A model generated the notes under the pieces. It saw nothing but the letters and a program-made list of their open reading frames with translations. It was not told the DNA's origin and did not search any database. The position numbers were made by a program, and so were the translations under genes. A DNA stretch of 10,432 nt from a virus, in UHGV virus genome UHGV-0214677; one strand, written 5' to 3'. Below are positions 1 to 10,432 of this stretch, in pieces. The stretch's first letter is position 1. Each line of letters begins with the position of its first letter.

Positions 1-201
1 ATAATGTCGCTACCGCAGGAAACGAAAGAGGAAAAGGAATTTCGCCATTGTATATGGCTTGCAGAGAAAGAAGAACGCGAGCGAATTTACCAGACATCAA
101 TCCGACCATTCCGCAAAGCCACATATACCCACTTCCCTGAATATATCGACCCGCGCCTGCGTAATTACCGCTCACGCTATGGCGCTATCAGTAATGACTG
201 A
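1..201 (+). CDS. Hypothetical prophage protein, probably 3' part of a gene that begins upstream of the window
   Basis: Frame 1 is open from nt 1 with an ATG at 4 and stop TGA at 199-201. The translation ([16 protein letters not shown]...) is protein-like, and the next gene follows 10 nt later with its own SD. No family recognised. Confidence 0.4.
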
Positions 202-211
202 GGAATTTACC

Positions 212-376
212 ATGAGAGGACTTGCATACAATCCCGGCATTCTTCCGGCAGAAATGATTATTCGCCAACGCGTAAAGCCAATGCCATCGAGAGAGGAATT
301 GCTTAAGAGAAATAGTTTCGGTTCTGTTAATGACAACAAATATCTGAATGCGATGTGGCGGAGTGGGAAAAAATGA
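212..376 (+). CDS. Small hypothetical prophage protein (54 aa)
   Basis: ATG at 212 preceded by GAGGA (200-204). Stop TGA at 374-376 overlaps the ATG of the next gene (ATGA). The longer ORF-track call 59..376 would overlap the previous gene out of frame and has no SD. Confidence 0.4.
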
Positions 377-972
377 AACAAATGTCACTAATTGAGATGG
401 ATGGTTTTCTGAAAGGTAAATGCATCCCAAGTGATTTAAAGGTTAACGAAACAAACGCTGAGTATCTGGTGCGTAAATTTGCTGAAGCGGAGGCCAAGAT
501 TTCGGCTCTGTCCGAAGACCACCAGAAAGCGATTGAGTCAATTAAGCAGGCTGATGCGGCTGTTAAGTTGGCACACGAGAAGTTTTCGGCGCTGGCGGCG
601 GAGAATGCGGGGCTGAAGGGTGCGTTTGATAAGCCTCAAGCATATCTATCCTGGCACGCTATTCCACCAAGCTGGGAAGACCCGCTCCCATGCGGTGAAT
701 ATCTTGATGTTCATGACGAGGCAGGACACAAAAACTCCGATGGAACTGATTGCTGGCCGGTATATGCCAAGCCAGAAATCGAGACCACAGCCACCTACGC
801 ATTCCTGGCTGAAGTACGGGCGCAGGGGGTAGAGATGTACGCAGATAACCTCGACAACGGAGCAGACGACGCAGAACGAGGTGGTTTTGATTATGCCGTT
901 AAGTTTCTACGCAGTGAAGCGTCTGGTGTACGTTTGTTCGCCGACCAGCTTCGCAAAGGAGGCAACCAGTGA
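373..972 (+). CDS. Hypothetical prophage protein
   Basis: ATG at 373 preceded by GGAG (359-362), in frame with the ORF-track call 355..972. Stop at 970-972 overlaps the GTG start of the next gene. No family recognised. Confidence 0.55.
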
Positions 973-1829
973 GCAAGATTGATTATCAGGCACTGCGTGC
1001 TAAGGCAGAAAAAGCAACGTGTGGCGAGTGGTCTCTCGAGTATGGAGAGGGCCGATTTGATGGTGATGATGCACTAATTCATCGCGAGGCTGCTGGATAT
1101 ATTCCCATTTGCAGAATTGAAGGAGCGCATCCTGAAAGCGGTTTCGATGAAGATTTCCAAATAGAACAGCAGGCCAATGCTGAATTCATCGCCGCAGCCA
1201 ATCCGGCTACCGTCTTGGCGCTGCTGGATGAACTGGAAAGAAACCAGCAATACATCAAACGCCGCGACCAGGAGAACGAGGATATTGCGCTTACGGTTGG
1301 GAGGCTGCGCGTTGAGCTGGAAGGCAAAGACAGCAAAATAGCCAATCTTACCGCCGAACGCGATGCTCTTCGTGAAGGTGAGATGGGCGACGCTAGGCAT
1401 AGCAACACACGGGCCGCAGCTGATATCTACTTCCAACTGGTCGAGGAGTGCGAAATTCCTGCTGGCGGTTCTCTGGTCGAGTACGTTGACGATATGCGCG
1501 AGAAGCTGGAAGCCGCAGAGAAACGTCTGGCAGAACTACAATCTAAATCCATGCGACCTGTGGCGTGGATGAGAAGCGACGATATTACTACATTTGGACC
1601 AATATTCACCAAGAACGAAAACTATGCTGTTGAGCAGTGGGGAGATAATGCGGTAGCGCTTTATGCATCCCCAGTTAATTTCAAGTTGGCATGCTTCACT
1701 GACGAGAGAAATCTTAAGTACATCAATGAACGAGGAAGGGAGACATCTCTCATCTGGAGCGAAAGAAATTCAGAAAATGGTGATGTTCAACTTTTCCGCG
1801 CCGCAGGCATTCGCATCAAAGGAGAGTGA
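969..1829 (+). CDS. Probable Ead/Ea22-like prophage protein
   Basis: 286-aa ORF with GTG start at 969 preceded by AGGAGG (957-962). N-terminal 'DYQALRAKAEKATCGEW' and a central coiled-coil-like acidic region resemble the Ead/Ea22-like family of lambdoid prophages (recalled, not searched). Confidence 0.65.
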   Translation: MSKIDYQALRAKAEKATCGEWSLEYGEGRFDGDDALIHREAAGYIPICRIEGAHPESGFDEDFQIEQQANAEFIAAANPATVLALLDELERNQQYIKRRDQENEDIALTVGRLRVELEGKDSKIANLTAERDALREGEMGDARHSNTRAAADIYFQLVEECEIPAGGSLVEYVDDMREKLEAAEKRLAELQSKSMRPVAWMRSDDITTFGPIFTKNENYAVEQWGDNAVALYASPVNFKLACFTDERNLKYINERGRETSLIWSERNSENGDVQLFRAAGIRIKGE

Positions 1830-1830
1830 T

Positions 1831-2118
1831 ATGGCAACTTTGCAGGAATTAATCGACCTGACGCCGGAACAGGAAAAAGCGTGGAATCGCCTTGTGAAGG
1901 CTGTAAAGGATTTCAGGGCATCCGGAGGAAAGTTTTATAGCGTCCTGGACACGCTGAGCGCATACAACGGTGAGCACGTTGCCAGCATTGATAACGATAA
2001 GGGCTACCACACTGCAAGCGTCTATATGCCTAGCATTGATGCGCCAGGGCTAACCAGTTGGGCTGATGATTGGCACGGCATCACGCTGAAAGATGGCGTT
2101 GAAGTGGATGAGGACTAA
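1831..2118 (+). CDS. Hypothetical prophage protein (96 aa)
   Basis: ATG at 1831 two nt after the previous stop, preceded by GGAGAG (1821-1826), in frame with ORF-track 1663..2118. The upstream part of that ORF overlaps the previous gene and is unlikely to be translated. Confidence 0.5.
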   Translation: MATLQELIDLTPEQEKAWNRLVKAVKDFRASGGKFYSVLDTLSAYNGEHVASIDNDKGYHTASVYMPSIDAPGLTSWADDWHGITLKDGVEVDED

Positions 2119-2121
2119 CCC

Positions 2122-2814
2122 ATGACCACTATTACCAAAGAGCGACTACTGACAATCAAGCAGTGGCGCGAAACATACGGACCTGGTAGCAACGTTGTAC
2201 TGCCAGCAGAAGAAGCGGAAGAACTGGCACGAATTGCACTGGCATCGCTGGAAGCAGAACCGGTGGCGTGGATGCGTGATGACGCAGATGGTCGTGAGTA
2301 TAACGCTCGCAATGAATTTTCTGATGGAGGGAAAGGAATTCCGCTATATCGTGTGCCGCCAGCGCCGGAAGTGCCGGAAGAAATATATTGGCAGGATGCG
2401 CCAGTTGAAGGCAGCATCAAAGCGGCTGCATACGCTACAGACTGGAACGCCTGCCGCGCCGCCATGCTTCATGGTGCCAAACCTGTAAGCCAGACTTACA
2501 AGTTAAACGAGCTGTCGGGCAACTCTCCGGTAACTCCGGATGGTTGGATAAGCTGTAGTGAGCAGATGCCTGTAATCGGCGAGCTAAATTGGAGAACTAG
2601 TTTTCCTTTACTGGTTACGTGTGAGATCGGCGTTATACCTGCTTATTACGGCTTTGTGAGCGTTAATGGTGATAGGCATTATGGCTTTATGGAGAGTCTT
2701 AAATACGGAGACGATAACGGCAACCATCCTCAAACTAATGAATATGGTCTGATTAGCAATGTCACACACTGGATGCCTCTACCAGAACCGCCTCAGGAGG
2801 TTAACCGTGGCTAA
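2122..2814 (+). CDS. DUF551-family prophage protein
   Basis: 230-aa ORF with ATG at 2122. The C-terminal '...THWMPLPEPP' matches the signature I recall for DUF551 proteins of enterobacterial prophages. Stop overlaps the next gene's start. Confidence 0.65.
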   Translation: MTTITKERLLTIKQWRETYGPGSNVVLPAEEAEELARIALASLEAEPVAWMRDDADGREYNARNEFSDGGKGIPLYRVPPAPEVPEEIYWQDAPVEGSIKAAAYATDWNACRAAMLHGAKPVSQTYKLNELSGNSPVTPDGWISCSEQMPVIGELNWRTSFPLLVTCEIGVIPAYYGFVSVNGDRHYGFMESLKYGDDNGNHPQTNEYGLISNVTHWMPLPEPPQEVNRG

Positions 2815-3088
2815 TCTGCAACTTGCCGTTAAAGGTGAATACTTCGATGCCATGATTCGCGGGGAGAAAACGGAAGAGTATCGCTTGTGTAATGACTACT
2901 GGAATAAGCGAATTATGTTCCGGGAGTATGACCGCCTGATTATCACGAAGGGATATCCGAAGCGCGACGACTTCAGTCGCAGAATTGATGTCCCGTATGA
3001 CGGATATGAAATCAAGACAATCACACATCCCCACTTCGGCGATAAACCGGTAAAGGTATACGCGATAAAGGTGAATATCAATTGCTAA
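2807..3088 (+). CDS. Hypothetical prophage protein, possibly ASCH/PUA-like fold
   Basis: GTG at 2807 preceded by a perfect AGGAGG (2795-2800) with 6-nt spacing, in frame with ORF-track 2759..3088. Overlaps the previous stop by 8 nt. The fold assignment is a weak guess. Confidence 0.5.
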   Translation: MANLQLAVKGEYFDAMIRGEKTEEYRLCNDYWNKRIMFREYDRLIITKGYPKRDDFSRRIDVPYDGYEIKTITHPHFGDKPVKVYAIKVNINC

Positions 3089-3089
3089 A

Positions 3090-3199
3090 TTAGTAGCATA
3101 GCATAAAGATGCTTGCATTAATGAAGTGTGTATAATAACGCCTCATCAATAGTAAACTACTGAAATAGCAAAAAATGCATATTAAAGAGGATTCGAAAA
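3090..3199 (+). promoter_or_regulatory. AT-rich intergenic region with candidate sigma70 -10 element (TATAAT at 3121-3126)
   Basis: Consensus TATAAT hexamer in an AT-rich spacer upstream of the 3200 ORF. The nearest -35-like TTGCAT (3104-3109) is only 11 nt away, so the promoter architecture is unresolved. Confidence 0.3.
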
Positions 3200-3391
3200 T
3201 TGAAAATGTTCATGCAAATAGACAGACGCATAGATATTAATGGCAATTCATACTTAGTTAGATGCGAAGAGAGGCCTAACGGTGAGTGGCGTGTATATGA
3301 TATTGACCGTAAGATCAATATCAGCACCATGAACAAAGACACTGCCTTTGATGAATGGAAAGCTGAAGCTAAAAAACAACATAATTCGTAG
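3200..3391 (+). CDS. Small hypothetical protein (63 aa)
   Basis: ORF with TTG at 3200 (ATG alternatives at 3206 and 3212) preceded by AAAGAGGA (3184-3191). Lies in the AT-rich region. No family recognised. Confidence 0.4.
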   Translation: MKMFMQIDRRIDINGNSYLVRCEERPNGEWRVYDIDRKINISTMNKDTAFDEWKAEAKKQHNS

Positions 3392-3471
3392 AATTACAAA
3401 AACCCTAACCAATTGATGGATTTCTTTTATCTGAACTCGCTACGGCGAGTTTTGTTTTATGGAGATGATAA

Positions 3472-3639
3472 ATGCACTTCCGAGTCACAGGTGAATGGAA
3501 TGGAGAGCCATTCAACAGGGTTATCGAAGCAGAGGACATCAACGACTGCTATAACCACTGGATGATATGGGCGCAGATAGCACATGCAGACGTAACCAAT
3601 ATTCGAATTGAAGAACTGAAAGAACACCAAACCGCCTGA
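3472..3639 (+). CDS. Small hypothetical protein (55 aa), below the ORF-track length cutoff
   Basis: ATG at 3472 preceded by GGAG (3461-3464). Translation MHFRVTGEWNGEPFNRVIEAEDINDCYNHWMIWAQIAHADVTNIRIEELKEHQTA. Stop TGA at 3637-3639 sits in the loop of a canonical terminator hairpin. Confidence 0.5.
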   Translation: MHFRVTGEWNGEPFNRVIEAEDINDCYNHWMIWAQIAHADVTNIRIEELKEHQTA

Positions 3640-3655
3640 TGGCGGTTTTTTATTG
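3630..3655 (+). terminator. Rho-independent terminator
   Basis: Stem ACCGCC (3631-3636) / GGCGGT (3641-3646) with loop TGAT, followed by TTTTTTATT. Confidence 0.7.
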
Positions 3656-3696
3656 CCTGATTTGCAGGTTCGATTCCCTATTCGGAGATAGCACTC

Positions 3697-3897
3697 ATGC
3701 AACACGAACTACAGCCTGATTCACTGGTTGATTTGAAATTCATCATGGCCGATACTGGCTTTGGTAAAACCTTCATCTACGACCGTATTAAGTCCGGCGA
3801 CTTGCCAAAAGCCAAAGTTATCCACGGGCGAGCAAGATGGTTATATCGTGACCATTGTGAATTCAAAAATAAGCTCTTAAGCCGCGCCAATGGGTAA
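3697..3897 (+). CDS. AlpA/Xis-family DNA-binding protein (probable excisionase or integrase regulator)
   Basis: 66-aa ORF with ATG at 3697 preceded by GGAG (3684-3687). The pattern 'LKFIMADTGFGKTFIYDRIKSGDLPKAKVIHGRARWLYRDHCEF' matches the AlpA-family helix-turn-helix signature. Sits immediately upstream of the integrase on the same strand. Confidence 0.8.
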   Translation: MQHELQPDSLVDLKFIMADTGFGKTFIYDRIKSGDLPKAKVIHGRARWLYRDHCEFKNKLLSRANG

Positions 3898-4109
3898 AAT
3901 AGCGGGTAAAATATTTCTCACATCTAAAAAACACCATTCCAATCAATCCCCTGCCGCCTCAAGTAGATGTCTGCAGGGGACACCATTTACACCTCTCCTG
4001 AAATCTACCATATCCCATAAAAAGCCTTTATAATCAGTATATACCCTTACTTATGTTACTCAAATAGTCGCCGTGATTCTCCTCAGGGGTACGTAAATCA
4101 AGTCACATT

Positions 4110-4159
4110 TGGGGGCCTATTTAGGGGCACATATTGGTCAATCTATTGCGAGGCCCCCA
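4110..4159 (+). promoter_or_regulatory. Perfect 9-bp inverted repeat spanning the integrase ribosome-binding site
   Basis: TGGGGGCCT (4110-4118) and AGGCCCCCA (4151-4159) are exact reverse complements 32 nt apart. The right arm contains the GAGG Shine-Dalgarno 7 nt before the int ATG. Confidence 0.3.
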
Positions 4160-4160
4160 G

Positions 4161-5351
4161 ATGCCACTGACAGCTCGACAAGTTGAAACAGCCAAACCCA
4201 AAGATAAAATTTATAAAATTGCCGATGGTGGTGGGCTCTACCTGCAGGTCAATCCTAACGGCTCAAAGTACTGGCGAATGAAGTACCACTATGCAGGGAA
4301 GGAAAAGAAACTATCATTTGGCACCTATCCAACTATTACATTGGCTGAAGCTCGCAAACGTCGGGATGAAGCCAAGAAAATACATGCCGATGGTAAAGAC
4401 CCCGGTGAAGTCAAGAAAGCTGAAAATCTTGAGAAAAACCTTTCTGAAGGAAGAACTTTTGCCACAATCGCCACCGAGTGGTACAACGCAAAAGTTTCAG
4501 GCTGGTCGGCCAGCTACGCTGATTATGTCGACAGAGCATTCAAAAATAATGTGTTTCCCTACATTGGAAACAGACCCATCAGTGATATCGAACCTCTTGA
4601 ACTTCTCGCAGTTCTTCAGCGTATTGAAAGCCGCGGAGCCTGCGAGCTAGCTAATAAAGTTCGCCAACGATGTGGTGAAGTGTTTCGGTATGCCATTGTT
4701 ACAGGTAGGGCTCGATACAATCCAGCCTCTGATCTGGTTATAGCAATGAAAAGCCATAAACGAACACATTACCCATTCCTGCTTCCTCCTGAACTACCAG
4801 AGTTTTTGTACAAACTCGAAAACTACACCGGCAGTATTGTAACCCGTGAAGCTACAAAATTGTTGATGCTCACAGGGCTGAGGACCGTAGAATTACGTAT
4901 GGGGGAATGGTGTGAGATCGATTTTTCCCAAAAAATATGGGAAGTGCCTCCGACCCGGATGAAAATGAGGAAGGAACATATTGTTCCCCTCTCAAATCAG
5001 GCAATTCGGTCTCTCCAAATCCTTAAAGAACTGACGGGAAGATACAGATACATCTTTGCCGGAAGAAATGATGTTAACAGGCCTATCAGCGATGCAAGCG
5101 TCAATATGGTTTTGAAGAAGATTGGCTATGACAAAAAAGCTACCGGGCATGGTTTTCGTCATACAATGAGTACTATTCTACATGAGAAAGGATTCAATAG
5201 TGCATGGATTGAAATGCAACTTGCACATACGGACAAAAACAGCATTCGTGGTACATACAACCATGCTCGTTACCTTGAAGGAAGACGAGAAATGATGCAA
5301 TGGTACGCTGACTACCTTGATGCTATTCGAAAAGATTCCCCAGCTATATAA
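4161..5351 (+). CDS. int: P4-family (DUF4102-type) tyrosine integrase
   Basis: Typical N-terminus 'MPLTARQVETAKPK...GGGLYLQVNPNGSKYWRMKYHYAGKEKKLSFGTYP...LAEARKRRDEAKK'. C-terminal catalytic signature present: R in 'GLRTVELR', 'HGFRHT', and Y in 'IRGTYNHARY'. ATG at 4161 with SD is preferred over the in-frame TTG at 4134 used by the ORF track. Confidence 0.9.
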   Translation: MPLTARQVETAKPKDKIYKIADGGGLYLQVNPNGSKYWRMKYHYAGKEKKLSFGTYPTITLAEARKRRDEAKKIHADGKDPGEVKKAENLEKNLSEGRTFATIATEWYNAKVSGWSASYADYVDRAFKNNVFPYIGNRPISDIEPLELLAVLQRIESRGACELANKVRQRCGEVFRYAIVTGRARYNPASDLVIAMKSHKRTHYPFLLPPELPEFLYKLENYTGSIVTREATKLLMLTGLRTVELRMGEWCEIDFSQKIWEVPPTRMKMRKEHIVPLSNQAIRSLQILKELTGRYRYIFAGRNDVNRPISDASVNMVLKKIGYDKKATGHGFRHTMSTILHEKGFNSAWIEMQLAHTDKNSIRGTYNHARYLEGRREMMQWYADYLDAIRKDSPAI

Positions 5352-5489
5352 TCACTTGATTTTAAAGGCTGACTTAACGAAATACCTTGATAGTCATTTA
5401 TCAGTAATCTAATAGTTAAGTCAGTCATAATCCCCTAAGTATCACTCCTCAATCAGTTTCAGCACATTGTTGACCTGTCTCCAGTATTC

Positions 5490-5913
5490 GATACAACCAT
5501 CAGTCAGCCTGCTGGCACGACGTTGCGACAGACCCGTTGCCTCACACATGACTTCCACGGCTTCCCACTTCTGTTCTGTCGTCAGAATTTCGGTCCAGAG
5601 CTACCTGAAGTACCTCCTTATCCAGCATGGTTTTGGCGAGCAGCGTCTTGAGGGGTCGTTCTCCTCTTCAGGTGTCTTAAGCCGCTTTACCTCAGGGACT
5701 TCTATTCCACCAAACTTCGGCGCCCGGTGTAGAAAGTAGCGTCTGAAATAGCATTCTTGCGGCAGAGTTCCCGGGCAGAAACGCCGGCTACGGCCTCGCG
5801 GAGGATACTGATAATCTGTTCGTCGGAAAACACTTCTTCATGGGGATACCCTAACGTTGCTGATGAAGACATTACTTACATCGTGGTATATTAATAAATG
5901 TGGGAGCAGGTCA
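5490..5913 (-). mobile_element. Degraded IS3-family insertion sequence remnant (IS407-group-like orfA with frameshifts, truncated at its distal end)
   Basis: The - strand reads MSSSATLGYPHEEVFSDEQIISILREAVAGVSARELCRKNAISDATFYT... from ATG at 5870-5872, then breaks frame. Other frames continue with '..EVPEVKRLKT..', '..LLAKTMLDKEVLQVAL..' and '..VEVMCEATGLSQRRASRL', typical of IS3-family OrfA and the OrfB N-terminus. A terminal-repeat-like TGACCTGCTCCCA (reverse complement of 5901-5913) lies 41 nt outside the ATG. The inner boundary near 5490 is approximate. Confidence 0.6.
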
Positions 5914-6058
5914 ACTCCACAATGCAGTCCACTGAGGGAAGAGATCATTAGGTGCAAAGGATCTACATTAGTGGCTGAAAACAACTAGAATTTAGAATTA
6001 AAAAGTTTTATCCTATATTAGTAAGTATTTTTGTTAACACTTTTGTAAGGATACTTTT
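5914..6058 (+). promoter_or_regulatory. Very AT-rich leader and probable promoter region of the SIR2-like/DUF262 operon
   Basis: About 145 bp of AT-rich non-coding DNA between the IS remnant end and the first cassette gene, with several TATA-like hexamers (for example TATATT near 6015) and an AAGGA SD at 6044-6048. No single -35/-10 pair can be assigned confidently. Confidence 0.25.
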
Positions 6059-7108
6059 TTGAGCAGCGAAAAAAAAAAGAAAGTTGGGTTAATGCTTGGG
6101 AATGGATTCACTATTGACCTCCTTAGCAAAATGGACAAACTTGATATAATTGACCCATCCGATCTATTTAAATATGGCGATATGGTTAAGTGGCCCGCCA
6201 CTGGGGAACCCGGTTTTCTTTCTGCTCGATATTGCCCAAATCTATGGCGATTGGGTGCAAGACCCGGGCTAAATAGAACCGCATCATATCAAATAATAGA
6301 AGAATTAATTACAGTAATAAATTTATATGCAACTCTACCTCCAGAAACAATAAAGAAGAAAAATCAGGCAAGTCATACTCCATTGTCAAACATTTACATT
6401 TATGCTTATCAAGAATTAGTTTCATATTTAAGGGAGCTTTTCATTGATTATAACGAAAAAGTTTCCTCTGAAGATCTACGTAAGTTAGAAAGTGGCTGGC
6501 GAGACTATTTGATGAAACTGGACAAAAACGAAAACATAGAACGAGTTGATATTATAACTTATAACTATGACATTTATCTTGAGCGCCTTCTTGATTTACT
6601 TAATATCAGATTTGACATCCCAAACATATCTGACGGGAATGCAAAGTTTAAAATATACAAACCACATGGCTCTATTAGCTTCTTGTATGAAGGATATATG
6701 TCAAAAGATAACTACAATATCCAAAAAGAGTTATCTTTAAATAATGGCGACATATCAAAATTCGAATGCCGGCATGAAAACTTAAGCCTTTACATGCCAT
6801 TAATTCCAATAATACCGCCAGCAGGAGAAGCTCATCGTTATGCCCAAAACTGGGCTAATTCAATTAAAGAGTCTATTGAAGCGACGATGGAGTCGTACAA
6901 CCCAAACGATGATTTCTTCATTTGTGGTATTTCATATTGGCATGTTGATCGTGCCGAAATTGATGCAATAATACGCAAAATAAACAGTGACGTTAATGTT
7001 AGAATGATTAATCCAGGAAATGTTGATGGTTTAAGTGCTATACTTGGAATGGTATTTAATAGTTATGTTCATCATTCATCATCTGAAGTTTTAAAGGAGC
7101 TTGCCTAA
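6059..7108 (+). CDS. SIR2-like (DHS-like NAD-binding, SIR2_2-type) protein; candidate NAD+-consuming effector
   Basis: 349-aa ORF. Three motifs occur in the order expected for SIR2-family defence proteins: a Gly-rich N-terminal loop 'VGLMLGNGFTIDL', 'DIITYNYDIYLERL' (compare the TTNYD motif; predicted Asn ~169) and 'KIYKPHGSISF' (compare the KLHGS motif; predicted His ~203). Start is TTG at 6059 (SD AAGGA at 6044-6048) or the in-frame ATG at 6092. Stop TAA at 7106-7108 overlaps the next start. Confidence 0.6.
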   Translation: MSSEKKKKVGLMLGNGFTIDLLSKMDKLDIIDPSDLFKYGDMVKWPATGEPGFLSARYCPNLWRLGARPGLNRTASYQIIEELITVINLYATLPPETIKKKNQASHTPLSNIYIYAYQELVSYLRELFIDYNEKVSSEDLRKLESGWRDYLMKLDKNENIERVDIITYNYDIYLERLLDLLNIRFDIPNISDGNAKFKIYKPHGSISFLYEGYMSKDNYNIQKELSLNNGDISKFECRHENLSLYMPLIPIIPPAGEAHRYAQNWANSIKESIEATMESYNPNDDFFICGISYWHVDRAEIDAIIRKINSDVNVRMINPGNVDGLSAILGMVFNSYVHHSSSEVLKELA

Positions 7109-8136
7109 TGGAAATTTTAAAGCGGGATTCAAACAGTATTAATATTGCTTCCTTTTGGGAGGGCTTTTCATTAGGCAAATTTAATTTTGATCCTCCTTAT
7201 CAAAGAGATAGTGTTTGGGATGAAGAAAAACAATCATTCTTTATAGATAGTATACTACGTAACTATCCAATTCCCCCTATATTTCTCCATCAAAAAATTG
7301 ATGATGACACCGGAAGAATCACGTTTGAAGTTGTTGACGGAAAACAGAGGCTCACTGCCATTGTTAATTTTATCAATGGCCAAATAACATCAGCAAGTGA
7401 GGAAGAAGATGATGAATTGACTGGTGTGTTTTTTTCCGATTTATCAACTTCTAAATATGCAGAAGTTAAAAAATTATTCTGGCGATATCAGATGCCTATA
7501 GAGTACATTGATACTGAAGACGAAAGAATAATTGATAGTATTTTCGACAGGCTTAACAGAAATGGTGAACGACTTAACGGACAAGAGTTAAGGAATGCCA
7601 AATATCATGATACTGATTTTTATAAAAAAATAGTAGAATATTCACAACGTGAATATTGGCAAAAATTGCTAGAGCACGTTGATAAGAAGAGAATGGAAGA
7701 CAAAGAGTTTGTATCTGAATTGATATTCACGATCCTTGAGGATGAAGTATTTGGTGCAACTCAAGACATAATTGATAGTCTTTACGAGAAGTATTGCACC
7801 AAGAATGGTGATGAAACAAATGAGGCATTTTCTATTTTTGAAAAAACAACTGACTATTTAGTTGATATGAATATTGATTTCAAAAGTCATAAAGCAAGCG
7901 GTGTTAGTCACTTATACGGAATCTTCAGTTATGCACTTTATTGCAGTAACAATAATGTTCCTGTAGAAGAAGCGTCAAATAGACTTTCCACCTTCCTGGA
8001 TAGCTTGTGGGAAAAAGATACACAACATAATGCGGAATTAAGAAGAGAATATAGAAAAACTATGAGTTCTAGCACAAAAAGCAAAACCCAACGCTCACGT
8101 AGAATTGAAGTGCTTTTAAATCTACTTCACGATTAA
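7108..8136 (+). CDS. DUF262 / ParB-like nucleotide-binding domain protein without a C-terminal HNH (DUF1524) domain
   Basis: 342-aa ORF with ATG at 7108 overlapping the upstream stop (TAATG), preceded by AAGGAG (7093-7098). N-terminal 'FDPPYQRDSVWDEEKQSFFIDSIL' and 'EVVDGKQRLTAI' match the two signature motifs of DUF262 (the GmrS / SspE N-terminal ParB-like domain). No His-Me/HNH-like motif is visible in the C-terminal ~140 aa. Confidence 0.75.
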   Translation: MEILKRDSNSINIASFWEGFSLGKFNFDPPYQRDSVWDEEKQSFFIDSILRNYPIPPIFLHQKIDDDTGRITFEVVDGKQRLTAIVNFINGQITSASEEEDDELTGVFFSDLSTSKYAEVKKLFWRYQMPIEYIDTEDERIIDSIFDRLNRNGERLNGQELRNAKYHDTDFYKKIVEYSQREYWQKLLEHVDKKRMEDKEFVSELIFTILEDEVFGATQDIIDSLYEKYCTKNGDETNEAFSIFEKTTDYLVDMNIDFKSHKASGVSHLYGIFSYALYCSNNNVPVEEASNRLSTFLDSLWEKDTQHNAELRREYRKTMSSSTKSKTQRSRRIEVLLNLLHD

Positions 8137-8148
8137 ACTATATAATAG

Positions 8149-8177
8149 TAGGAGTGAACTTCGCTCCTGCTTTTCTC
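8149..8177 (+). terminator. Possible weak intrinsic terminator downstream of the DUF262 gene
   Basis: AGGAG (8150-8154) ... CTCCT (8164-8168) can form a short stem, followed by GCTTTTCTC. The stem is short and the loop long, so this is tentative. Confidence 0.3.
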
Positions 8178-8788
8178 ACTCTATCTTTTATTATTTCTCT
8201 TTGAGATATGAAGTAATACTTTAAAAATATAAATCACATTCATCGCATATGATATTGTGATATCCCCACATGGTGCATGTTCGTAGTCTATCCCTCAGGC
8301 AAATAATAATAGAAAGTTAACCGAATCAGTTATACTCTCACCCAGATATTAGGATGGCTAAATCAACATGAGTGCAAGGATCGTCTTGGGGGAAACATTG
8401 GCACTGTGTGATGGCTCATCATTAAAAAATCAGTTTATATCAAAAGTAAATGATTACAGAAAAACTATATTTATAGATAAAGAAAAAAGCATTTAATTAC
8501 TTCTTAAATATGATAATCACACTCTGTGAAATGATACTTTGACTTACTTCCAATTATTAAACCACGAGATTCATGCATTACCATAATCATTTAAGAAAAC
8601 AAAAGTCCGGCCTTTGCTCTTATCAACCACTACAATTCATAAAGAAATCCTGTTGATGCAAAAAAAAGACATTGATCACAATATCGAGTTAATCATTTGA
8701 AAGTTTATTACTCACATTGAAAAATTTCTCAGTATCAGATATACCAACGTTGAGGGCTTCCCTCTTACATCTCAAAAGGATAACTATC

Positions 8789-8917
8789 ATGGGTCTTAAA
8801 CCAGGTCCAAAACCAATTGCTAAATCGACAGGAAAACCGGATCAACGCCGACGAGATAATAAAGATACTCCTGGCAACACTCCGGGACTAAAGCCAAGTA
8901 AGTCCACCGGGAAGTAA
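8789..8917 (+). CDS. Small Lys/Pro/Gly-rich hypothetical protein (42 aa)
   Basis: ATG at 8789 preceded by AAGGA (8775-8779), within ORF-track 8717..8917, whose TTG start has no SD. Translation MGLKPGPKPIAKSTGKPDQRRRDNKDTPGNTPGLKPSKSTGK is low-complexity. No family recognised. Confidence 0.3.
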   Translation: MGLKPGPKPIAKSTGKPDQRRRDNKDTPGNTPGLKPSKSTGK

Positions 8918-8922
8918 AAAAT

Positions 8923-8951
8923 CAGGGTATAAATAAGTTATTTATACCCTG
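8923..8951. terminator. Perfect palindromic hairpin between convergent genes, probably the terminator of the - strand gene remnant
   Basis: CAGGGTATAAATAA (8923-8936), G, TTATTTATACCCTG (8938-8951): 14-nt arms that are exact reverse complements. An A-run (8916-8921) on the + strand gives a U-tract after the hairpin for the - strand transcript. Confidence 0.55.
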
Positions 8952-8965
8952 ACTACATATCCAGT

Positions 8966-9861
8966 TTACTGAAGGTGTTTCTGCAGCCAGATGCACGTTC
9001 CTTCTGTATCATACGCCTGTGCCCCATACCCTGTAGCAAGCAAAGTCTCTGGTAAATACTCGTCATATTTATCCAGGTACTTGTCAGGAACAACTGCAGC
9101 AAGCTCAAACTCTGAAGGTAACCCCGACAATAACATTTTCTTAAGTGCACGCTGAACAGAGGCAACGCCTGAGCCCTCTACCTCTATCACACCTGCAAAT
9201 GAACTGGCTTTAAAGCCACAACGTATAAGCAGGGACGTAATTGTATTGACAATTTTATCCCCCATCCACGGGATCACGTAGCAGTTCTGACCACTGGCAA
9301 TAAAACAGTGATTTTGTAGATTGTAGCGTTGGAAGTTGTCACTTCCTTCCGCGAAGAGGCTTCTGGCTGCGGCATCAGCATAATCAACTCTCTTGTTGCC
9401 TACCGCGATACGGTAATCATTTTCCCTGTAGATAGCGAGCATCTCCTGGCGAACAACATCATGAACAGACATCCCGCTACCACTGAATAGTGGTGGCTGC
9501 CCGCCTTTAGTCGCCTCAACATAGATAGCTTTTTTTCAACCTCGATCTCTGTCACTTTCCAGCGCTGTCCGCCGAAGATGATGTGCTGCTCCGGCAAAAG
9601 TGGGGAGTCTACAGGCACTGTGCCAAGAGTTCGGTTTCCCGTTACAATGCGAAACTCCTCAGATGTATTGAATACGGCATAAAACGTGTAGTGATTAATC
9701 AGCTTCTCCCCCTCAGCCCCGACAACTATTTAACCGCTGGCTAGTTGAGTGAGCAGGCCACATGTCCCCATATGTTTAAGCAGACTTTTGAAGTCATTTA
9801 TATCCACATTCCGGAACGGACCTGTCTGGCAAAGTTGTGACCAGAGCTGATCGGCACGAAC
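8966..9861 (-). pseudogene. Disrupted gene of unknown function (C-terminal remnant with frameshift and in-frame stop, truncated by IS insertion)
   Basis: ORF-track fragments 8966..9472 and 9400..9618 are adjacent frames of one reading frame, broken at a 7-T homopolymer (9530-9536). Further upstream the reading continues in the same frame as the 9400..9618 fragment but is interrupted by an in-frame TAA near 9735, and the coding sequence runs directly into the IS end at 9862. I could not assign a family. Confidence 0.6.

Positions 9862-10432
<571 letters not shown>

Follow-up and report, generated by a model that had tools for sequence, protein, structure and literature searches.

Positions 6059-8136 of the virus genome UHGV-0214677 carry two overlapping genes, one for a SIR2-family protein (gene 1) and one for a protein with a DUF262 domain (gene 2). 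The stretch of DNA that we analysed, called the window here, is 10,432 nucleotides (nt) long in total. The evidence inclines us to read the two genes as a self-contained, horizontally mobile anti-phage operon of the abortive-infection type. An earlier interpretation made from the letters alone (the sequence-only reading) had proposed that a SIR2-like effector depleting nicotinamide adenine dinucleotide (NAD+) is coupled here to a DUF262 sensor. This interpretation is supported by folds, motifs and gene linkage, and all the motifs that it quoted for the two genes are present. Of the outcomes that it listed as refuting, none occurred in the checks that could be made by computation.

Folds and motifs of the two proteins

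Gene 1 encodes a single-domain protein of 349 amino acids (aa), whose AlphaFold2 model had a mean predicted local distance difference test score (pLDDT) of 89.9 and a predicted template modelling score (pTM) of 0.90. When the model was compared with the PDB by Foldseek, all 47 matches at E<=1e-3 were defence SIR2 proteins. SIR2-HerA/Nezha came first with an E-value of 3e-9, followed by PsSIR2, KomBC/HAM-SIR2 (Kongming), ThsA and DSR2, with a probability of 1.00, and Avs5 fell just above E 1e-3. The resemblance to effectors such as ThsA and DSR that the sequence-only reading had seen in the motifs is thus found again in the predicted fold. The matched structures share 10-17% sequence identity with gene 1, and a family profile of gene 1 returned one weak SIR2 match (E 0.01) among the PDB sequences. 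The family-profile alignment places YNYD and KPHGS of gene 1 opposite TNYD and KLHGS of PsSIR2 (8w9l).

The family of gene 1 is large: a 90%-identity collection contains 691 of its clusters, and at 50% identity 576 representatives were matched with E<=1e-3, of which 97 had E-values below 1e-30. We aligned 39 members of this family at 36-86% identity. Residues G14-N15-G16, Y170-D171 and K201-P-H-G-S205 were invariant or near-invariant, as were I252-P-P-A-G256, G290, S292-Y-W-H-V-D-R298 and E300, and N169 was kept in at least 90% of the homologues. The conserved stretches fit the NAD-binding and catalytic patterns GxGxS/T, xNYD, KxHGS and GxS...D of SIR2 proteins. Taken with the motif alignment to PsSIR2, this conservation indicates that Asn169 and His203, the residues singled out earlier, are the right predicted catalytic residues. 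Precomputed matches to Pfam SIR2_2 (PF13289) were present in 16 of the 120 homologues listed, which indicates that the family straddles the Pfam threshold. Judged by its modelled fold, gene 1 belongs to the defence branch of the SIR2 superfamily, in which it is divergent; it passes neither curated family threshold, and by analogy with its relatives we predict it to be an NAD+-consuming effector with an intact Asn/Asp/His catalytic set.

Two of the invariant motifs, IPPAG (252-256) and WHVDR (294-298), are specific to this family, and the sequence assigns no role to them. These motifs, and the fact that the activity of gene 1 is a prediction, speak for a different kind of chemistry. The SIR2-like protein might use NAD+ to ADP-ribosylate or deacylate a specific target, be it DNA, its DUF262 partner or a protein of phage or host. 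Alternatively, it might act as a nuclease, an activity that has been claimed for some defence proteins of the SIR2 type. In either case, phage would be restricted without killing of the cell. The SIR2 superfamily indeed includes deacylases and ADP-ribosyltransferases (PMC13064643). We consider this improbable, however, as every one of the closest structures is a defence effector that hydrolyses NAD+ and none is a sirtuin deacylase. In addition, secondary structure and motifs gave no sign of a sirtuin-type zinc module, although no dedicated test for it was made.

Gene 2 was recognised by profile searches directly. Pfam GmrSD_N/DUF262 (PF03235) matched aa 27-166 above threshold (3.7e-27). Among the PADLOC models, NsnA aligned over aa 11-340 to positions 51-379 of the 385 in its profile (1.9e-39), PD-T4-2_A matched with 1.4e-27 and the REase_II model PDLC03418 with 9.6e-12. 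PHROG 2598 matched gene 2 with 2.8e-48, and the PHROGs held nothing for gene 1. A gene 2 profile found nothing among the PDB sequences, and only the comparison of folds gave matches. The motifs YQR, DGKQRL (77-82) and FDRLNRNGE were invariant across 36 homologues of gene 2. They correspond to the QR, DGQQR and FxxxN motifs, mutation of which abolishes defence in GrwAB and HEC-06 (PMC12137116; 10.1101/2024.01.29.577857). We found no nuclease in gene 2: there was no Pfam DUF1524/HNH match, the C-terminal half is all-helical, and the structural matches included no nuclease fold. By analogy with other DUF262 proteins, gene 2 is predicted to be a nucleoside triphosphate (NTP)-dependent sensor of DNA or of its modification.

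Pairing and operon structure

To survey the distribution of the pair, we took one genome per species, which yielded 80 loci, and added five loci on viral contigs from IMG/VR, 85 in total. The 80 loci come from Gammaproteobacteria, Betaproteobacteria, Alphaproteobacteria, Campylobacterota, Bacteroidota, Bacillota, Verrucomicrobiota, Planctomycetota, Nitrospirota, Calditrichota and others. A homologue of gene 2 with 34-54% identity lies directly downstream of gene 1, on the same strand, in 77 of these loci. Two of the remaining three stop at a contig edge, and the third has a truncated gene 1. With the pair present in all five IMG/VR loci, the two genes are adjacent and co-oriented in 82/85 loci across many phyla. 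The stop and start codons overlap in 56 of the 77 loci, with -4 as the commonest offset, and in 20 more the genes lie within 30 nt of each other (76/77 in total). The pairwise identities of the two proteins are also correlated across 74 loci (Pearson r 0.78, Mantel p 0.001). The SIR2-DUF262 pairing is therefore far beyond chance. No conserved third gene was found around 77-80 of the related loci, where 293 of 376 flanking open reading frames (ORFs) were singletons. The pair always lies on accessory DNA and its distribution is patchy; neighbours in other genomes include restriction-modification (R-M) genes, DUF4145, helix-turn-helix (HTH) regulators, recombinases and ParE.

The window itself shows the same arrangement (Table 1). 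Both reading frames and the overlap between them are exactly as first described, and the RefSeq annotation of identical E. coli loci has these two coding sequences (CDSs) as well, naming gene 1 'hypothetical' or 'SIR2 family protein' and gene 2 'DUF262 domain-containing protein'. The TTG start of gene 1 is consistent with the N-termini of its homologues and with the RefSeq CDS. A terminator-like hairpin begins 11 nt past the stop codon of gene 2, with a folding energy of -15.9 kcal/mol (z -4.8) and none of 200 shuffled sequences as stable, although a simple consensus terminator scan did not list it. With this hairpin directly after gene 2, the operon looks complete with two genes. Matches in the promoter scan were no commoner than in shuffled sequence, and we therefore claim no promoter.

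These data also bear on whether gene 2 might be the orphan of a decayed Menshen (NsnABC) or PD-T4-2 system, next to which gene 1 stands as an unrelated neighbour. The best PADLOC matches of gene 2 would agree with such an origin, as would the decay of the island downstream, where a Shango remnant and insertion sequence (IS) elements are found. However, the adjacency of the two genes across phyla, the lack of conservation of NsnB, NsnC and HEPN, and the hairpin that follows gene 2 all argue against it. The orphan reading is effectively refuted by the neighbourhood data.

One feature of gene 1 varies between strains. The A10 homopolymer in its codons 4-7 is A9 in strains NT1F25 and GXU-23-25-310, in which the full-length gene 1 is frameshifted and RefSeq annotates a 325-aa gene 1 protein without the GNG loop. 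In two more E. coli genomes the match covers 2300 bases rather than 2301, and in Klebsiella oxytoca the A-tract is interrupted (AACAAAAAAA). The A10/A9 variation might reflect slipped-strand switching of the gene on and off, or an assembly error in the homopolymer.

Table 1. Features of the window. Positions are those of the window; residue numbers (aa) refer to the respective protein.
Feature	Position	Strand	Details
tRNA-Arg 3' end, last 15 nt (CTGCAGGGGACACCA)	3971-3985	+	Left end of the island; alignment to argW locus, strain M21816
P4-type tyrosine integrase	4134-5351	+	Pfam Arm-DNA-bind_3, Phage_int_M, Phage_integrase
IS3-family transposase OrfA fragment	5467-5872	-	Frameshifted; HTH_Tnp_1; between integrase and gene 1
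Ribosome-binding site of gene 1	6047-6061	+	AAGGA 6047-6051, 7 nt before TTG 6059-6061; sequence
Gene 1, SIR2-family (SIRim/SIR2_2/AbiH-like)	6059-7108	+	349 aa, TTG start
A10 homopolymer	6069-6078	+	Gene 1 codons 4-7 (KKKK); alignment
Gene 1 motifs	aa 14-205		GNGFT 14-18 (GNG 14-16), ITYNYD 166-171, YNYD 168-171, KPHGS 201-205
Gene 1 motifs, C-terminal	aa 252-300		IPPAG 252-256, GISYWHVDRAE 290-300
Coupling junction	7094-7110	+	Shine-Dalgarno sequence AAGGAG 7094-7099 inside the end of gene 1; TAATG 7106-7110, TAA of gene 1 (7106-7108) overlapping ATG of gene 2 (7108-7110)
Gene 2, NsnA-like	7108-8136	+	342 aa, ATG start
Gene 2 domains	aa ~27-342		ParB-DUF262 ~27-166; helical C-terminal half ~170-342, ParBDB-like
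Gene 2 motifs	aa 29-154		PPYQRDSVW 29-37, YQR 31-33, DGKQRLT 77-83, FDRLNRNGE 146-154
Terminator-like hairpin	8147-8178	+	11-bp stem, 3-nt loop (8147-8171), then UUUUCUC
sngC (Shango helicase) C-terminal remnant	8966-9868	-	Cut by IS3-family element
IS3-family (IS1203-like) rve transposase	9904-10422		Pfam; element cuts the sngC remnant

Restriction-modification neighbourhood and proposed mechanism

The C5-cytosine methyltransferase is the sole recurrent neighbour of the pair and accounts for 26 of the 265 nearest ORFs. A methyltransferase of this kind (PF00145) lies within about 3 kb in 28 of the 80 loci, a rate (35%) that was judged against general expectation only, with no matched control set of other defence genes. 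In 24 of the 28 it is on the same strand as the pair. Loci with a complete m5C type II R-M system immediately beside the pair include, in our numbering, L003, L022, L025, L026, L039, L045, L052, L057, L060, L062-L065 and L076-L078. The methyltransferase is nearly always accompanied by a type II restriction enzyme, and these enzymes belong to unrelated families: NgoMIV (8), Cfr10I/Bse634I (7), HNH (5), NaeI (3), BsaWI (2), EcoO109I (1) and NgoFVII (1). Going by the prototype enzymes, we take the families in 20 of the 28 linked loci to cut CCGG-core sites. Genes for Vsr or C-protein-like HTH proteins are present at some of these loci. The gene orders M-R-SIR2-DUF262 and SIR2-DUF262-M-R are both found, with gaps down to 5-150 bp, and linked loci occur in at least 13 of the distinct clusters into which the pair sequences group, which indicates that the association with R-M arose repeatedly. 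N6 and N4 methyltransferase families were absent from the top-25 neighbour lists. The window and the identical E. coli loci contain no methyltransferase; upstream of the pair, where the IS3 OrfA fragment now stands, an earlier neighbour (a methyltransferase, for instance) may have disappeared.

One linked locus is built differently. In Pseudomonas edaphica (L016, 898-3563), the genes upstream of the pair encode a C5-methyltransferase and then a 536-aa protein with HATPase_c_3 and Hypoth_Ymh domains, which stands where a recognisable restriction enzyme would be expected. The idea that gene 2 is the missing restriction enzyme of orphan C5-methyltransferases was rejected, because most of the loci in question have conventional restriction enzymes (Bse634I-like, NgoFVII).

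The neighbourhood raises the question of whether the pair is free-standing at all, or whether it serves as an accessory arm of cytosine-5 type II R-M. The DUF262 protein would then read the 5-methylcytosine (m5C) state of DNA, either taking host methylation as a 'self' mark, as SspE does with phosphorothioate, or sensing phage DNA that evades the neighbouring restriction enzyme by self-methylation or hypermodified cytosine, and the SIR2 protein would serve as a back-up by killing the cell. In E. coli the copy would be a stand-alone derivative, which might depend on a chromosomal methyltransferase such as Dcm. The frequency, strand bias and repeated origin of the linkage fit such an arm, as do the two gene orders, the short gaps, the presence of Vsr, the variety of restriction enzymes and the lack of any other methyltransferase family in the top-25 neighbour lists. 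The REase_II match of gene 2 points the same way, and Dazbog, another DUF262 system, responds to a phage C5-methylase that methylates CCGG (10.1101/2022.08.27.505566). Against this stands that 52 of the 80 loci, and the E. coli window, have no methyltransferase nearby, and that conservation of the DUF262 protein is much the same whether or not a locus is linked. The conventional restriction enzyme that usually accompanies the methyltransferase further indicates that the pair is not supplying a missing 'R'. We therefore regard an accessory role as rather unlikely, though it is the alternative to which we give most weight.

A self-contained operon, in contrast to an accessory arm, could work as follows. 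The gene 2 protein would bind DNA, and a nucleotide switch made up of its DGKQR and YQR motifs would report a feature of foreign DNA, most plausibly cytosine modification or methylation state. Until such a feature is sensed, gene 2 would keep the gene 1 protein inactive, presumably by protein-protein interaction. On sensing, the SIR2 protein would be released or assembled and would hydrolyse NAD+, and phage replication would be stopped at the cost of the cell. DUF262 is the sensor in GmrSD, BrxU and SspE and the proposed sensor in Menshen (PMC12065111), and SIR2 domains are NAD+-depleting effectors in Thoeris, DSR and SIR2-HerA (PMC10952713). Direct coupling of sensor and effector fits the features of the pair, because it has neither a nuclease nor a transducer ATPase, is strictly paired and is translationally coupled. 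As to the putative trigger, the m5C R-M neighbourhood and the C5-methylase that triggers Dazbog together point to the modification state of cytosine. The low-GC cassette, the tRNA-Arg, the integrase, the IS fragments and the decayed Shango gene provide an island context that supports a role in defence.

Several results weigh against a defence operon of this kind. The best Pfam match of gene 1, AbiH (PF14253; 9.7e-5, 23 bits), lies below its cut-off of 30.9, and SIR2_2 (2.8e-3, 18.2 bits) lies below 24.5. The PADLOC SIR2 models reach only about 1e-3, NCBIfam gave no meaningful match for gene 1 (nor for gene 2), and the template modelling scores (TM-scores) of the structural matches are modest, at about 0.5. 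The assignment of gene 2 as sensor and gene 1 as killer is made by analogy only. No SIR2-DUF262 fusion was found among the best 150 of the 576 family representatives; the longest protein among these 150 has 423 aa. A tblastn search with gene 1 gave no match in GenBank phages and two matches only in plasmids, one of them partial, and IMG/VR contributed only five loci, so that the pair is hardly ever met in phage and plasmid sequences. Ordinary housekeeping genes are neighbours at many loci, which shows that the defence-island signal is not uniform. Finally, we found no experiments on the pair or on any homologue in the literature.

The same patchy, accessory distribution, and the proximity to type II R-M units, which are selfish elements themselves, could also be explained by an addiction module of the toxin-antitoxin kind or by a module for competition between elements, with which the pair would stabilise genomic islands and R-M cassettes instead of warding off phage. 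One of its products is indeed predicted to be toxic and the other regulatory. However, typical antitoxins are unlike these two proteins, which are large, enzymatic and equipped with conserved nucleotide-binding motifs, and in other systems domains of these types have been linked to phage defence by experiment (PMC10952713). We consider such a module quite improbable.

A bolder version of the operon model would make the pair a reader of the cytosine epigenome that is wired to cell suicide. Its NsnA-like DUF262 protein would sense C5-methylation or hypermodification at CCGG-type sites, and the SIR2 NADase would fire on DNA that escapes the neighbouring type II enzyme through phage self-methylation or modified cytosines. 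We hold this to be unlikely, a shade more so than the accessory arm. If it were true, the pair would be the first described NAD+-depleting back-up layer that has been repeatedly and independently added to classical m5C R-M.

Both domains are already familiar in defence and many candidate pairs of this kind exist. The link to m5C type II R-M is the most interesting lead. If validated, the pair would add a widespread defence system with at least 576 family representatives at 50% identity in many phyla. It would also be a new combination of two well-studied modules, in which a DUF262 protein that senses DNA acts directly on an NAD+-depleting SIR2 effector, with neither nuclease nor transducer ATPase involved. 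It would offer a minimal two-protein model of how a ParB-like NTPase switch passes a DNA signal to an effector that is not a nuclease. The recurrent attachment to C5-methyltransferase/CCGG-family R-M makes it testable whether restriction is backed up by an abortive layer that reads DNA modification, and it may explain why annotation pipelines sometimes label DUF262 proteins as type II restriction enzymes. Because this copy comes from E. coli itself, the phage collections and genetic tools in standard use for that species are immediately applicable.

Island setting and comparison with known systems

The source of the window is E. coli DNA. Of 5426 complete E. coli genomes, only 27 carry the 2.3-kb cassette with the pair at an identity of 99% or more, in every case on the chromosome. 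As noted in the sequence-only reading, the pair sits in an AT-rich cassette between an integrase and IS elements: GC makes up 0.32-0.35 of the sequence at 6000-8750 but 0.44-0.53 of the flanking DNA, and pieces of IS3 elements lie on both sides. In strain M21816 the order is tRNA-Arg beside yfdC, integrase, IS fragment, the pair, a helicase pseudogene, IS3 and IS1. The helicase pseudogene is represented in the window by an ORF at 8966-9472 (- strand) that matches the PADLOC SngC model with 4.9e-30 and that RefSeq annotates as a 'DEAD/DEAH box helicase' pseudogene. Integrases with 96% identity occupy the same tRNA in about 240 other E. coli genomes with different cargo. Together with the Shango remnant, this indicates an integration site of variable cargo, and an island that formerly carried another known defence system.

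Two of these other E. coli loci (L082, 13117-17137, and L083, 13115-17135) have the 96%-identical integrase at the same tRNA-Arg, followed by genes for a 786-aa 'HsdR N-terminal domain-containing protein' and a 338-aa hypothetical protein, with IS3 and IS66 on the flanks. Such cargo may be a further uncharacterised defence candidate.

Outside the island, window positions 1-3970 are contiguous with it in no complete E. coli genome. The region 1-3985 contains genes of lambdoid prophage type, Ead/Ea22-like (969-1829) and DUF551 (2122-2814), and a small HTH ORF (3697-3897). The match with the argW locus sets in at the 15 nt of the tRNA-Arg end, and ARAGORN found no intact tRNA. The arrangement suggests that a second element was integrated in tandem at the same attachment (att) site. 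On the other side of the pair, about 790 bp with 32-36% GC (8179-8965) separate gene 2 from the convergent sngC remnant. The only ORF of at least 50 aa in this segment (66 aa, 8717-8917) has no Pfam match, and on the - strand a strong 16-bp hairpin with a T-run (8920-8954) probably serves as terminator of sngC.

We compared the pair with described defence systems. PADLOC 2.0 (PADLOC-DB of 2023) matched it to no system, and full-text searches of open-access papers and bioRxiv found no description of a SIR2-DUF262 pair and no mention of the two RefSeq accessions; the earlier impression that the pairing has no name thus held. WonAB, which was suspected at first, consists of an OLD-ABC ATPase and a PD-(D/E)xK nuclease and is unrelated.

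On the side of gene 2, the closest system is Menshen. Gene 2 resembles NsnA over its whole length, and the two have in common a ParB-DUF262 domain followed by a helical C-terminal part; for NsnA, this architecture and a proposed role as DNA-sensing NTPase have been described (PMC12065111). However, the ABC-ATPase NsnB and the inPIN-nuclease effector NsnC of Menshen are absent from the window and are not conserved in the 80 loci. The partner here is instead an upstream SIR2 protein, with no transducer ATPase between sensor and effector. PD-T4-2 is similar in that gene 2 matches PD-T4-2_A, but gene 1 matches no PD-T4-2_B model, and the HEPN partner that forms the second component of that system (PMC10952713) is not found beside gene 2. 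GmrSD, BrxU and SspE have in common with gene 2 an N-terminal DUF262 domain with QR, DGxQR and FxxxN motifs. In contrast to GmrSD, gene 2 has no DUF1524 His-Me (HNH) nuclease, and the predicted output is loss of NAD+ rather than DNA cleavage.

Dazbog (DzbAB) is likewise a two-gene system with one DUF262 protein that acts by abortive infection and is triggered by a phage C5-methylase at CCGG (10.1101/2022.08.27.505566). Its C5-methylation-linked trigger has a parallel in the m5C R-M neighbourhoods of the pair. However, the DUF262 gene comes first in Dazbog, according to the published description, and second here, and neither window protein matched a Dzb model (PADLOC 2.0, E<=1). As for type II R-M, the window has no adjacent methyltransferase, whereas 28 of the 80 related loci have one, there with its own restriction enzyme.

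On the side of gene 1, the Asn/Asp/His motifs are shared with the SIR2-effector systems SIR2-HerA/Nezha, Thoeris (ThsA), DSR1/2, SPARSA, Avs5 and Kongming (KomC), and by analogy the expected output would be the same, namely NAD+ depletion and abortive infection. The partner in those systems is a HerA helicase, TIR/SLOG, Argonaute or STAND protein, whereas here it is a DUF262 protein. The pair has no ThsB TIR and SLOG, no HerA and no long DSR C-terminal region, and thus does not fall under the definitions of Thoeris, SIR2-HerA or DSR. AbiH of Lactococcus, a single-gene abortive infection protein, is regarded as a SIR2-like 'SIRim' protein (10.1101/2024.09.18.613514; PMC13064643). It is the best Pfam match of gene 1 and of similar size, but gene 1 scores below the AbiH cut-off, and AbiH works alone whereas the gene 1 family is obligately paired with DUF262. 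The pair is therefore best classed as a candidate defence system, widely distributed and without a name, in which known modules are found in a new combination.

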